Positions 16,336-47,333 are shown, numbered from the stretch's first letter. The stretch is 64,000 nt of DNA from a virus (IMGVR_UViG_3300048997_000130:64001-128000), one strand, 5' to 3'. Translations and numbers: made by a program. Notes: generated by a model not told the origin, from the letters alone.

Positions 16336-16559
16336 AAGATATCAATACACCTGGATTTCTATCATTCGAACTCAGTGGACCAGTTTGTGGAATAAAGGAA
16401 TGTTCAGGTGTATTGATATATAATATCGATTTAAATACCAAAAAGTCTTTTTATCGTTGTTCTGAATGTAAAACCGAATTCGATAGACAATCTGAGTTGT
16501 ATAAAAAACAAAAAGAAACTTTGGAACTCTTAATAAGTTTATTAATAATTATTTTATGA
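16332..16559 (+). CDS. Small Zn-ribbon protein with hydrophobic tail
   Basis: PVCGIKEC..YRCSECK; ATGA overlap with thyX. Confidence 0.6.
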   Translation: MKDINTPGFLSFELSGPVCGIKECSGVLIYNIDLNTKKSFYRCSECKTEFDRQSELYKKQKETLELLISLLIIIL

Positions 16560-16777
16560 GAGTCCATATATTCGGAACGCACTTTGTAAATAGGTTCCCG
16601 AATATTCGATTTTCAGAAGAACAATTTGAAGCAATTTGGTTATGTAGTCGCTGTCATTATCGAGTGTCTCGATTTTATTTGATTGACTGTCGGGTCATCG
16701 ACAATCCGCAGCGACTTGTTCCAGAAGAATATAGAGATTGCGATGTTGAAATTGCCCGCCGTATCATGACGAGCTAA
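16556..16777 (+). CDS. Small H/CxxC/C protein with shared C-terminal tag
   Basis: WLCSRC..DCDVEIARRIMTS*. Confidence 0.7.
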   Translation: MRVHIFGTHFVNRFPNIRFSEEQFEAIWLCSRCHYRVSRFYLIDCRVIDNPQRLVPEEYRDCDVEIARRIMTS

Positions 16778-17701
16778 TCATATGCTAAAAAATTGATGAA
16801 CCCATCCTTTAATTGTTACCCAATGTTGAATTATCCATTGAGCAGCTGTTCCAACTGCTGCTAAAGTGGAAAGCGGGATAGTAATCTTACGTGAAATCCC
16901 TTTACTGGCTTTGTCCGTCTGATTTTGGATCGATTGAATAGCAATATCAGTCGAATTTTTAATATGGGTTTCAAAAGCGTCCATGCGCCGATCATGGATT
17001 ACATTAGTAGTAATTAATTTTAAAATTTCTTCAGTATGTCTGGCTTGAGAATCTTCATAATCGCTGAATGTTTTCTTGATTTGAGTTTGTACAGCCAATG
17101 AAGTATCTCTAGAAATACCAGCATGTTCTAATGCATTCTTTGCAGCAGTCTTAACATTTTCTACACTGTTTTCGATTTTAGTTAAATGATTTTGTAAACC
17201 TTGGACTTCACGACCAAGTCCCTGAATTTTTCCTTCTGTTGATTTAGTTAAATGTCCAAGCCTATTATTTAACTCCCATTGACGATTTAAAGCTTCCATT
17301 TGCATTTTCATAAATGCAAATGTATGGCCTCCATCTTCAGTATTATTGATGCATTCGACTTGCATCCAATATATTGGAGCTTCGAGCTTAAAGAATGTGT
17401 TATACCACCATATTATTGTATTATTTAATGATTTACTTGGCCAAATAAAATATTGTTGAGGATCCCCAGTTAATGTATTCTGAATCGCTATTCGTAATTG
17501 ATCATGGAACTGAGGTTGGATAAATTCAAATATAGATAGAGATTGCAGTTTAGATAAATCACATCCAAGTTTGGTTAATACGAAATCGTTTGCCCAAGTG
17601 AATCGTTCTTGATCCAGATTGACTTCGAACATACCTTTATCAGTTAGAGATCTCCCATGAGATCGCATGGTTAAGATAGTGCTATCCATCTTATGTTTCA
17701 T
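16778..17701 (-). CDS. PAS domain + coiled coil + C-terminal membrane anchor
   Basis: FTWANDFVLTKLGC..LSIFEFIQPQFH..IIWW (PAS pattern), heptad-rich middle, ITIPLSTLAAVGTAAQWIIQHW. Confidence 0.7.
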   Translation of the reverse strand: MKHKMDSTILTMRSHGRSLTDKGMFEVNLDQERFTWANDFVLTKLGCDLSKLQSLSIFEFIQPQFHDQLRIAIQNTLTGDPQQYFIWPSKSLNNTIIWWYNTFFKLEAPIYWMQVECINNTEDGGHTFAFMKMQMEALNRQWELNNRLGHLTKSTEGKIQGLGREVQGLQNHLTKIENSVENVKTAAKNALEHAGISRDTSLAVQTQIKKTFSDYEDSQARHTEEILKLITTNVIHDRRMDAFETHIKNSTDIAIQSIQNQTDKASKGISRKITIPLSTLAAVGTAAQWIIQHWVTIKGWVHQFFSI

Positions 17702-17779
17702 GGCTTTTATGTTTCATGTTGATAAAAGCCTCCGAAATCCATCCCAATAATACTCCAATACAGTTGGTATTGTCACGAC

Positions 17780-18133
17780 ATGGCGTCATCAATACCTAAC
17801 CGATTAATTATGCAATGTGATAAATGCAGAGTTGCTCAACATTGCCAAAAGCAAGGTTCAAGCCCGCTCTATAATAATACTACGATGTTGTTATGTAGAA
17901 TCGTAGGGGGATATGGGAAAGAGCCAGTTCCTCTTGCTATTTTATCTGAATCTAGTAAAAAGTTGGTTGAAGAACACGGTCCATGTCTTACGATTGCAGA
18001 GATCCCGATTCGAGATGAAGCTTCAGGAGACGTTTATTTCGAAACCATTAAGATTTTCCATGAACCAATATTACATGAAAGAGAAAAGACAAATTTCCAC
18101 TTGGATATGTTATATCCAAGAAGCCATAATTAA
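17780..18133 (+). CDS. Hypothetical Cys-containing protein
   Basis: CDKC..HC near the N-terminus. Confidence 0.65.
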   Translation: MASSIPNRLIMQCDKCRVAQHCQKQGSSPLYNNTTMLLCRIVGGYGKEPVPLAILSESSKKLVEEHGPCLTIAEIPIRDEASGDVYFETIKIFHEPILHEREKTNFHLDMLYPRSHN

Positions 18134-18138
18134 AGAAA

Positions 18139-18732
18139 TTAATCTATAATTAATTCTCGGAGTCTGGATTTTATGTATTCCATTCGTTTTTCATAATCCA
18201 AGTGATTTTTACGATATACTCGAATTATATTTTGCGATAAATTTGCTTGCTCGAAATCTTGATTCCAAGGTTGATCTAACATCAACACTAGACCACGAGG
18301 TCTCCATTCTAACCATCGAGTGATATATGGAGGCCAATCATCAAACAAAACTTTCCCATATTGACCACCTTTATCTTGTGTAATAGTTACACTAGCATCA
18401 GGGAGATGTTCCATACACCATTCATATTTTTCAGTCCACGCTGTACTACACCGCTTAGGTCCTTTAGTTAAGACAACCAAAATAAATTGCAATTCTCTGA
18501 ATAAATCAATTATTTTTATGCCTTCTTCAATGAGAGGAAGACTTTTCCAATATCCAGGATTATTTTTAATCAACTCCATTCGGCGCTCAATATAATCAGG
18601 AGCTCCTTCTATCTTGGTAACTGGTGATTCAAATGGAGAACGCAGTTCTTCCAATTTAGCTAACATAGTGGAATTATAATCCACCATGGTCCCATCCATA
18701 TCAATCAAAGCGATGAGTTCAGATTTTTTCAT
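18139..18732 (-). CDS. HAD-family 5'(3')-deoxyribonucleotidase (NT5C-like)
   Basis: ALIDMDGTMVD (motif I), LTK, WTEKYEWC, VLFDDWP (motif IV). Confidence 0.85.
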   Translation of the reverse strand: MKKSELIALIDMDGTMVDYNSTMLAKLEELRSPFESPVTKIEGAPDYIERRMELIKNNPGYWKSLPLIEEGIKIIDLFRELQFILVVLTKGPKRCSTAWTEKYEWCMEHLPDASVTITQDKGGQYGKVLFDDWPPYITRWLEWRPRGLVLMLDQPWNQDFEQANLSQNIIRVYRKNHLDYEKRMEYIKSRLRELIID

Positions 18733-18767
18733 TTTAATTTAATGAAAAAATACAATTTGGAATAAGC

Positions 18768-19115
18768 TTAATTACTAAATAACACTGGCAGATATTCAGG
18801 AATAGAATAATCTGGAGTTTCTCTCCATCCAGATTTTTTCCCATCAGGAACCATTTGCATCACTTGTAGACGAGATTGTAATCGAATATGATCTGTGACA
18901 ATTATAACACCTGCACAAGTTTCTCCACGTATTTCCGATGGACAAATATTCCCAGATAACGAATAGGTTATACCTATTATTCCTTCACGAGAAGATTCTG
19001 CAATTATCCAAGATCGAATATCATCATTCGGACTGGTGGCTTTTATCCAGCCAGTCCGAGTATATAAAAAACCTTCAGAAGCAATCTCTGTACATGGATG
19101 ACCTTCATCCAGCAA
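18768..19115 (-). CDS. Hypothetical protein
   Basis: 115-aa ORF. Confidence 0.55.
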   Translation of the reverse strand: MLDEGHPCTEIASEGFLYTRTGWIKATSPNDDIRSWIIAESSREGIIGITYSLSGNICPSEIRGETCAGVIIVTDHIRLQSRLQVMQMVPDGKKSGWRETPDYSIPEYLPVLFSN

Positions 19116-46237: not shown

Positions 46238-46451
46238 ATTCTTCAGTATGTTCAGACATATCCGACTTACCGGATATTTGTTTCTCGAGCACAGCCTTTT
46301 ATCGAGATCGAGGTCTCAGCGAGAGAATCGTAATCAAAATAATCACGCACCCTAAGATTCCCCAAACGAAAAAGACCTCTCTCACAGCGTCCCCGACAAT
46401 GATATGAATTCCTTATTCATATTCCTTCCTATATATGGGATGGGTGAATTT

Positions 46452-46504
46452 CCATACAGCTGAAGGGGAGGCCGGGAAAACCGGCCTCCCCTTCAGCTGT
46501 ATGG
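46452..46504. terminator. 24-bp perfect hairpin
   Basis: CCATACAGCTGAAGGGGAGGCCGG-GAAAA-reverse complement; just downstream of ORF 46514. Confidence 0.75.
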
Positions 46505-46513
46505 CCCGACTTT

Positions 46514-46828
46514 TCAGATGTCCGAGTAGCAAGTCCGAACGTGGGGATGATAGATGCAGAGCGTGCTGCTGGTTTCGATGAGAATCGGTTGAAGCGTGAT
46601 GGTGCGATGCGTCTGCTTGGCCGGACCTTTGACCGTCATGGCCTGGAGCTCCTCGACCACGGCAGGAGGCGCGGGATAACTGACGACGTCCTCGAACCTG
46701 TGCGGAGCTTCCTGCGTGGCCGTGTGGACCGGGGTTTGCACCGTGTTCAAGCACAACGCGAACGCCGGGATTGCCACTGCCATCATCACAACCAGAGCCA
46801 CCGCGAAAGTCTTGATTTGATTTTTCAT
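46514..46828 (-). CDS. Secreted protein
   Basis: MKNQIKTFAVALVVMMAVAIPAFA signal peptide; behind cassette 46836-46877. Confidence 0.75.
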   Translation of the reverse strand: MKNQIKTFAVALVVMMAVAIPAFALCLNTVQTPVHTATQEAPHRFEDVVSYPAPPAVVEELQAMTVKGPAKQTHRTITLQPILIETSSTLCIYHPHVRTCYSDI

Positions 46829-46936
46829 TGGAACCGAACCTCCATCCCCTTCTATGGAATCAATCCAGTGATTTACCGAAGCGGTTTTTAAAAGAGATTC
46901 TTCGTAAATCCTCCATATAGCCGTATAGCTTGGAAC

Positions 46937-47062
46937 ATGAACAACGTGAAGATGACCGCCGAGGAAGCCGCGTTGCTTGCAAAAATTCGTGAGCAATTGG
47001 CATTGCAAGCTCGCAGGATTGCCATTTATCCGAGCTTGCATGGTGGGCGACGCCCCCTCTGA
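46937..47062 (+). CDS. Unlisted 41-aa, probably leaderless, protein MNNVKMTAEEAALL...
   Basis: Plus-strand CGTAAA(46903)-N15-TATAGC with ATG 7 nt later; fills the gap up to the convergent stop at 47064. Confidence 0.6.
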   Translation: MNNVKMTAEEAALLAKIREQLALQARRIAIYPSLHGGRRPL

Positions 47063-47063
47063 T

Positions 47064-47333
47064 TCAAGAAGTTTGGATAGATGCCACTAACTGAATATCG
47101 CAATCTGGTTGATATCCGTAGAGATCCAACCAGGCATCAGTATCAGTCTCGAATTCCGGCCAGTCAGGACCGGATTCATCATTATTGGGTTGATTCTGGG
47201 GATCCACGATGGTGTAGCCACAACGTTGGCATACGTACGTGTGAGATAATATCAGGGATTGCCCAGTTCTCGGATCACGGGAACCGTGTTCTTCAACGAA
47301 CTCCTCTAAATGATCAAAGTTATGGCTCTTCAT
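47064..47333 (-). CDS. H/CxxC/C protein with shared C-terminal tag
   Basis: MKSHNF..YVCQRCG..DCDIQLVASIQTS*. Confidence 0.75.
   Translation of the reverse strand: MKSHNFDHLEEFVEEHGSRDPRTGQSLILSHTYVCQRCGYTIVDPQNQPNNDESGPDWPEFETDTDAWLDLYGYQPDCDIQLVASIQTS

Follow-up and report, generated by a model that had tools for sequence, protein, structure and literature searches.

Why should a dozen predicted proteins of one giant uncultivated phage, encoded on both strands, finish on nearly the same eight residues? The stretch that raises this question, IMGVR_UViG_3300048997_000130:64001-128000, is 64,000 nucleotides long and is called here the window; it represents bases 64,001-128,000 of an IMG/VR phage record of 196,676 bp (CheckV completeness 44%), denoted G000, whose gene content includes a portal, a head protease, a clamp loader, ribonucleotide reductase, ThyX and a terminase that bears an intein (33105-36707 of the record). 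An earlier note on the window had listed twelve C-terminal octapeptides, nine taken as a shared tag on unrelated small proteins and three as its variants. All twelve are found in the window with a stop codon immediately after each, and eleven are supported by sequence comparison as copies of one tag, the twelfth, at 37597, being weak. Judged by sequence, the window tails are local copies of a helical C-terminal tag that extends over a whole clade of related phages, and we put at about one in two the probability that this tag serves for docking to a shared reader.

The tag emerges from per-position statistics that assume no motif. Among the 315 genes called on the whole record (gene calls throughout were crude and based on open reading frames (ORFs), namely the longest non-overlapping ones plus a codon-usage variant), Met stands at the third position from the end (-3) in 49, six times the expectation, and the C-termini are also enriched in Ile/Val (-4, -7), Glu (-2, -10) and Ser (-1). 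The pattern [IVT]M..$ closes 45 of the 315 genes, where 1.2 are expected (Poisson 1e-53), and it keeps an exact register to the free C-terminus, as two residues follow the Met in these 45 genes while every other offset is represented by 0-2 genes. A C-terminal weight matrix reaches a score of at least 8 at 51 of 315 termini and at 18 of 54,561 internal positions, shadow ORFs almost never carry the tag, and a hidden Markov model built on the last 32 residues found nothing beyond its training set and no internal copies. The resulting consensus is h(-8)-[VI](-7)-x-x-[VI](-4)-[M, less often H or Q](-3)-[ED](-2)-S-COOH, where h is hydrophobic, and Pro and Gly are scarce in it (2% vs 12%). The hydrophobic and [IV] core proposed in the earlier note is thereby retained; its terminal [ST] is too strict, the last residue being often another one, and -3 accepts His in addition to the Met and Gln that had been noticed.

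For an independent measure, a matrix of 20 positions was trained on 313 tags of three related genomes only (G001-G003). In these tags V/I occupies -7 in 86%, E/D occupies -2 in 58% and Glu alone in 46%, and the last residue is Ser in 67% and otherwise Thr, Leu, Ala or Glu. The window tails were scored with positions -3 and -4 omitted, 1,125 C-termini of two tag-free relatives serving as the control, and 9 of the 12 tails outscore every one of the control termini; those at 29901 and 32208 follow with p=0.004, and 37597 gives the weak p=0.012. Only one additional tag was found among the 521 window ORFs of at least 40 residues, at 63699-64340. The ORF at 23222-23590 (...GKIQVR), which the first matrix had flagged, is not a tag according to the independent one.

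How far does the tag extend beyond this phage? Scans of IMG/VR with single window proteins found no close relatives, and scans with alignments of a tagged family found nothing; homologues of the terminase are numerous (40-63% identity), and their alignment led to 80 IMG/VR loci. Among the relatives, G001 (427 kb), G002 (436 kb), G003 (393 kb) and G044 (377 kb) were read whole and G036 over 360 of its 362.5 kb, together with the more distant G005 (412 kb) and GenBank LR745208.1 (485 kb). The [IVT]M..$ ending is present on 156 of 662 genes in G001 (1.9 expected), 99 of 624 in G002 (2.0), 58 of 560 in G003 (1.6), 51 of 529 in G044 (2.0) and 15 of 416 in G036 (1.3), and the excess in tag-bearing genomes always falls at offset 2. 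Including the 197-kb G000, six related phage genomes carry the tag on 4-26% of their genes, five of them complete at 360-440 kb. The first 320 kb of G005 hold the ending on 1 of 498 genes (1.4 expected) and LR745208 on 2 of 627 (2.0), and these chance levels indicate that the tag is specific to one lineage and that the method yields no false signal in sister phages. Within that clade the tag is retained in genomes from 35 to 67% GC, a range which suggests diverse hosts. No published description of such a C-terminal tag was found in the literature.

A shared protein ending may in principle be a shadow of the DNA: the signal could reside in the nucleotides, or stop/start overlaps and embedded ribosome-binding sites could produce the ending incidentally. 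There is some ground for this idea, because TCA-TGA with an overlapping ATG is over-represented, ATGA overlaps being found in 121 of 402 tags over four genomes and TCA making up 120 of the 267 Ser codons. The codon data nevertheless refute it, so that the objection which the earlier note had itself named, an origin from overlaps or SD sequences, fails. All six Ser codons (TCN and AGY) are in use, as are ACN for Thr, varied Ile/Val codons and all three stops, TGA, TAA and TAG, and since the tag codons vary in this way an overlap or DNA signal is ruled out. About 70% of the tags have no ATGA overlap (in G000 it accompanies only 12 of 51 tagged genes, vs 32 of 264 untagged), the tag persists across the GC range given above, and Met is replaced by His or Gln, which are not its codon neighbours. 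We consider the probability of a nucleotide-level origin to be practically nil, and the earlier claim of conservation at the protein level is upheld. Homologues also keep the tag where their neighbouring genes differ.

The members in the window can be followed along its length (for genes on the minus strand the shorthand coordinate used here marks the C-terminal end, for those on the plus strand the ORF start). The first, at 16556..16777 (+), is a 73-residue protein of zinc-ribbon type with the tail ...RDCDVEIARRIMTS, whose score of 8.8 without -3 and -4 exceeds all 1,125 outgroup tails; it lies within a variable insert adjoining ThyX, and no homologue was found in the relatives. Two long-helix proteins follow on the same strand. 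That at 25695..26162 (155 residues, ...YIIDPIMKS) has a syntenic homologue in G003 (307118-307618) ending in ...YIVQPLMES, and that at 28293..28787 (164 residues, Gln at -3, ...SYEEVCIATNEVIILGVQDS, score 13.6) has one in G001 (248305-248781) ending in ...LVQDLMNS; a search among 5.8 billion proteins gave no homologue of the latter. Directly downstream of it, at 28784-29335 (+), an NT5C-type 5'-deoxynucleotidase is encoded, which occurs in G002, G005 and LR745208 and not in G001 or G003. Three consecutive tagged genes for CxxC proteins come next on the minus strand: 29587..29904 (105 residues, ...SCSEAQKLAILHNIMNS, score 12.2), which stands outside the zinc-ribbon family described below, 29901..30242 (about 113 residues, start uncertain, ...CKDCEKSSIIRQIMRT, score 4.9) and 30221..30583 (likely start at an ATG near 30493, ...YQTVWHIMQS, score 8.7).

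Divergent tails close the 75-residue protein at 32208..32435 (-; ...LTVIEFTQSE, score 4.8) and the 100-residue protein at 32436..32738 (-; ...EAIEVTQEE, score 8.6), which are weak paralogues of each other; a homologue of the second in G003 (178144-178470, 60% identity over 30 residues) has the canonical end ...KHIMDS. The doubtful member is a 191-residue ORF at 37597..38172 (-; ...QVYEIQHN, score 2.5), for which no homologues were found. Three more proteins of zinc-ribbon type, all with Gln at -3 and on the minus strand, are encoded at 42654..42848 (64 residues, ...SVDCNIEIIKQVQES, score 17.8), 42848..43057 (69 residues, ...SSDCKVEMIKKIQES, score 16.0) and 47064..47390 (likely start near 47333, ...PDCDIQLVASIQTS, score 9.9). 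Homologues of the 69-residue protein end in ...VMES in G002 (67561-67791) and in ...IHDS in G003 (387518-387880), and its search among 5.8 billion proteins returned at most the query itself. The additional tagged gene, which the earlier note did not contain, occupies 63699..64000 (+) in the window and ends 340 bases past it, encoding 213 residues with the end ...QVHSVMSS. As to the surroundings, the first 28 kb of the window form a core region syntenic with the relatives, and the ribonucleotide reductase, at 112-4212 (-), is of class II type, 1,366 residues long, with an inserted LAGLIDADG intein.

What is read at position -3? With -3 and -4 left out of the tag definition, -3 is occupied by Met in 283 tags, His in 20, Gln in 12, Leu in 3 and Thr in 2, so that residues one base away from ATG (Leu, Ile, Val, Thr) seldom occur there, while the accepted substitutes, His and Gln, need at least two base changes; on account of this pattern a specific pocket fits better than plain core packing. 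His and Gln are frequent at -3 in G036 and G044. In G036 (L222-L239, 57% GC), where about 4% of the called genes carry the tag, the top-scoring tails have His or Gln more often than Met. Window tails with Gln at -3 have Met- or His-type homologues in other genomes (28293, 42848, 32436). The Gln form is also unevenly placed. An island at 29000-64000 of the window has 45-54% GC inside a phage of 36-40% GC and is specific to this genome, with almost no homologues in relatives, the few existing ones being in the 50% GC genomes G002 and G003. All six Gln tags of G000 belong to the island, where another 4 tags have Met; the tags outside it comprise 31 with Met and 0 with Gln (Fisher 5e-5). The island may derive from a lineage with a Gln 'dialect', or, alternatively, GC pressure may favour CAR/CAY over ATG there. 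A similar GC-rich stretch is present in G001 at 180-220 kb.

The proteins that carry the tag are small (median 102 residues in G001) and change rapidly: only 6% of the tagged proteins of G001 have a homologue in G002 or G003, vs 30% for size-matched untagged ones, and database matches are limited to 1 of 56 in Pfam and 3 of 56 in PHROGs. Their genes are concentrated in dense arrays of small genes away from the structural genes, a few being in or near the head module. After removal of the last 22 residues, BLAST sorts 402 tagged proteins from four genomes into 374 clusters, so the earlier statement that the N-terminal parts are unrelated is mostly right. It fails for four window proteins, those at 16556, 42654, 42848 and 47064, which had been counted among the unrelated ones and all belong to one family with the pattern HxW...CxxC...C(-12); from sequence, and from the model of the 42848 protein, each appears to be a zinc ribbon, a fold that has four ligands on two knuckles around a small beta-sheet. 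This family has 55 members (91 at a looser threshold) and is restricted to tag-bearing genomes; all of 50 sequences share CxxC and C(-12), and nearly all have the His of HxW. The H..CxxC..C module seen in the window is clade-wide, Cys being the commonest residue at -12 of the G001-G003 tags (18%), and the second, helical module also proved clade-wide, in the form of an S-[DE]-E cap that opens a longer terminal helix at about -20 to -18.

Another large family is that of the 63699 protein. Its eight paralogues share 12-21% identity, and apart from the start no column but Met(-3) is invariant among them. In a library of 1.84 billion proteins this family has 85 further clusters (50% identity), most of which keep [IV]-[ML]-[ED]-x at the very end, and tblastn against GenBank phages gave no match to a family member. 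The clearest case for a portable tag comes from a RuvC-like resolvase (a borderline Pfam match) conserved in G001-G003, G005 and LR745208. In the tag-free genomes the orthologues stop at residues 214 and 221, whereas those of G001 (L119:14718-15455) and G002 (159484-160209) have a 30-residue extension closing in ...IVESIMQK and ...TVKEVMES, respectively; in G003 the extension is present and a clear tag is absent. The enzyme has gained the tag as an extension, so the tag is portable, in agreement with the modularity suggested earlier. Two other tagged proteins (G001 238529-238918; G003 54172-54867) contain the last 70-85 residues of a very conserved head-module protein of 298 residues (G000 17787-18683).

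If a shared reader exists, which protein could it be? Three candidates in the window had been proposed, and none has a counterpart across the tag-bearing relatives. The stand-alone PDZ protein of 142 residues at 56790..57218 (-; PDZ_6, E=1e-9) has a homologue in none of five complete relatives, three of them tag-bearing, and the tails do not resemble PDZ ligands (classes I-III) with a hydrophobic last residue, as Ser is last in 67% and the PDZ protein is absent from G001-G003. The PDZ protein, unique to G000 among the compared genomes, adjoins a Cys-rich protein of 151 residues with a hydrophobic N-terminus (56334-56789). The 282-residue AAA ATPase (PF00004) at 31300..32148 (-) has a weak match in G001 and none in G002 or G003 and is likewise disfavoured, and the protein at 61685 lacks a counterpart in tag-bearing relatives, as does a lone YcaO (G000 156147-157163) considered as a conserved reader or modifier.

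Sixty-six untagged proteins of G001 are kept in both G002 and G003 and absent from both G005 and LR745208; among those with Pfam matches are DnaJ and a sigma factor, as well as collagen-repeat proteins and a DUF2201 metallopeptidase-vWA protein. DUF2201_N is found in 5 of 5 complete tag-bearing records and in 0 of 8 complete tag-free ones, the same distribution as that of the zinc-ribbon tag family, and a gene for a MoxR-like AAA_5 ATPase lies 2-4 kb from the DUF2201 gene in all four genomes examined (G000-G003). In G000 the ATPase (164777-165970; L007:16777-17967) has intact Walker A/B motifs (GSAGIGKT, VLIVDE), and its partner (169277-170830; L008:1277-2827), with DUF2201_N and DUF2201, combines an HExxH metallopeptidase (HESYH), a Cys-rich part and a vWA domain whose DTSGS matches the DxSxS of an adhesion site dependent on a metal ion (MIDAS). 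The orthologues of the ATPase in G001-G003 pass the AAA_5 cut-off. The pair is placed in tag-rich gene arrays and not in the structural module. Pairs of this kind in jumbo phages have been described as a chaperone and cochaperone, for which a part in virion assembly was proposed (Iyer et al. 2021, PMC7824862), and vWA MIDAS sites are known for metal-dependent protein binding (PMC9976466; NorQ/NorD). Since the MIDAS binds partners via an acidic ligand, by analogy a Glu-x-COOH tail could supply one. For the phage pair a client tag has not been described, and the link made here is one of phyletic co-occurrence and neighbourhood. Provided that the tag does serve for docking, the MoxR/vWA pair is a plausible lead as its reader, though the odds are clearly against it.

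Several observations weigh against a docking tag read in this way. All tag-bearing genomes belong to one clade, and the co-occurrence with the MoxR/vWA pair therefore has the weight of one evolutionary event; the presence profile of the pair is common to about 65 other genes (five genomes being compared in full), and the G000 ATPase itself misses Pfam at E<0.001. Further ones come from structure and descent. AlphaFold with a family alignment gave for the 213-residue 63699 protein a pLDDT (predicted local distance difference test) of 80, rising to 94-97 over the last 80 residues, with terminal helices at 164-189 and 195-212, and for the 69-residue zinc protein at 42848 a pLDDT of 89, with three strands and helices at 42-51 and 58-68, the second of which is the tag and begins at the ligand Cys; a Foldseek search with both models against the PDB gave no significant match. 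In these models the tag helix is ordered and attached to the body, unlike a loose appended peptide. It is packed within compact domains at high confidence (94-97), and the zinc-family helix starts at a metal ligand, so it may be an integral core helix and not an exposed tag. In 29 homologous tagged pairs from different genomes, moreover, the last eight residues are conserved no better than the body (37% vs 35%), and among the wider homologues of the 63699 protein about 10% have residues beyond the motif and many have Leu at -3.

Taken together with the large paralogue families described above (55-91 zinc-ribbon members, and the 85 further clusters of the 63699 family) and with the invariance of Cys at -12 as a zinc ligand, these data are what one would expect if there were no shared reader at all and the ending were a structural or self-associating mini-domain (a small fold's last helix, or one for dimerisation), spread by duplication and fusion within one enormous set of quickly diverging small proteins and kept by descent and folding. 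This would leave it to be explained why the same eight-residue pattern with an exact stop occurs on zinc-ribbon, all-helical and RuvC-like bodies, why no internal copies exist, and why the tag is wholly absent from sister lineages with 45 common core genes; the acceptance of Met, His and Gln at -3 with near exclusion of Leu, Ile and Val is also unusual for a core position. We hold such a mini-domain to be rather unlikely.

Do known C-terminal signals offer a parallel for a docking tag? Peroxisomal targeting signal 1 (PTS1), an unstructured eukaryotic C-terminal tripeptide [SAC][KRH][LM] read by the TPR domain of Pex5, shares with the phage tag its restriction to the free C-terminus, the fixed register and the presence on many unrelated proteins. 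The phage tag differs in being an acidic amphipathic helix of 8-12 residues with Met at -3, its tails ending in [VI]-M-[ED]-S and not in [SAC]-[KRH]-[LM]-COOH. Acidic C-terminal tails that dock on a hub are also known from E. coli single-stranded DNA-binding protein (SSB) and from T7 gp2.5 and gp4, the latter on T7 DNA polymerase; the free tail as a common docking element is alike, whereas in those systems one or two proteins dock on many partners, or a few on one, vs 50-170 tagged ones per genome here, and the sequence and structure are different.

Could the tag act on the lifetime or folding of its carriers, for instance as a handle by which a protease, an unfoldase or a J-protein of host or phage would limit the lifetime of early proteins or aid their folding? 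A register to the free carboxylate is typical of ssrA-type and eukaryotic C-degrons, and the clade encodes specific DnaJ/DnaJ_C proteins and a metallopeptidase. An ssrA-like degron, however, is an unstructured tail with a small non-polar end such as LAA, while the phage tail is helical, acidic, ended by Ser and poor in Pro and Gly, and a structured helix on folded domains is a poor initiation site for an unfoldase. A J-domain protein is also present in the tag-free LR745208, the window AAA ATPase is not conserved, and the GC span of the clade, with the diversity of hosts it suggests, argues against this function as well, so that we see it as improbable.

Short portable peptides on diverse proteins are likewise a feature of encapsulin cargo loading and of the T4 capsid-targeting sequence, which direct proteins into an HK97-fold shell or head. 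The T4 sequence stands at the N-terminus, where the prohead protease cuts it off at [LI]-x-E, and encapsulin peptides follow a flexible linker and have a different consensus; the tag considered here is strictly C-terminal, has Glu at -2 in 46% and forms a helix joined to the body. Small anti-host proteins could be loaded into the very large head and injected along with the DNA, and a cargo that is small, diverse and fast evolving, as anti-defence proteins would be, suits this idea; a few tagged genes do lie in or near the head module, and a virion-assembly role has been proposed for the MoxR/vWA-peptidase pair (PMC7824862). The clade also has a specific head-module protein of 490 residues (G000 26288-27760), which has no Pfam or PDB match. 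Against packaging stand the position of most tagged genes in small-gene regions apart from the structural genes, the number of 100-170 cargo species, which would lack precedent, and the fact that the major head proteins are common to tag-free relatives. Capsid targeting is in our opinion quite doubtful.

Returning to a docking tag with a shared reader, we can outline how it might work. The tag helix starts either at the zinc-ligand Cys at -12 of a small His/Cys3 ribbon or at the S-[DE]-E cap near -20 to -18, and a partner shared by the clade would read its hydrophobic face, the Met, His or Gln side chain and the free carboxylate, whereby many different proteins would pass through one common step. 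The leading candidate partner would be the clade-specific MoxR-like AAA+ ATPase with the HExxH-metallopeptidase/vWA protein, in whose vWA domain Glu(-2) or the terminal carboxylate could complete the metal site (MIDAS). More broadly, and only as a tentative proposal with the odds against it, we suggest an addressing system run by a lineage of 360-440-kb phages itself. The MoxR/vWA pair or another clade-specific receptor would read the tag at the free carboxylate and bring between a tenth and a quarter of all proteins to one step, for example remodelling or processing, packaging or removal at a set time; the cargo would be small effectors, hundreds of them and quick to evolve, and lineage dialects of the tag (Met, His or Gln at -3) would pass between phages with genomic islands.

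If the tag is indeed an address label, giant phages would possess a viral signal by which a large share of their proteome is sorted, something which is known for organelles and not for phages. It would then provide a single handle on hundreds of 'dark' phage proteins, which could be found by their tail, pulled down and used to identify a common partner; it would also mark fast-evolving host-interaction genes and supply a short portable tag for engineering. Should it turn out instead to be a structural mini-domain that is mobile, very large new families are still defined by it, including a zinc ribbon of at least 55 members, that account for a sixth of the genes of such genomes.

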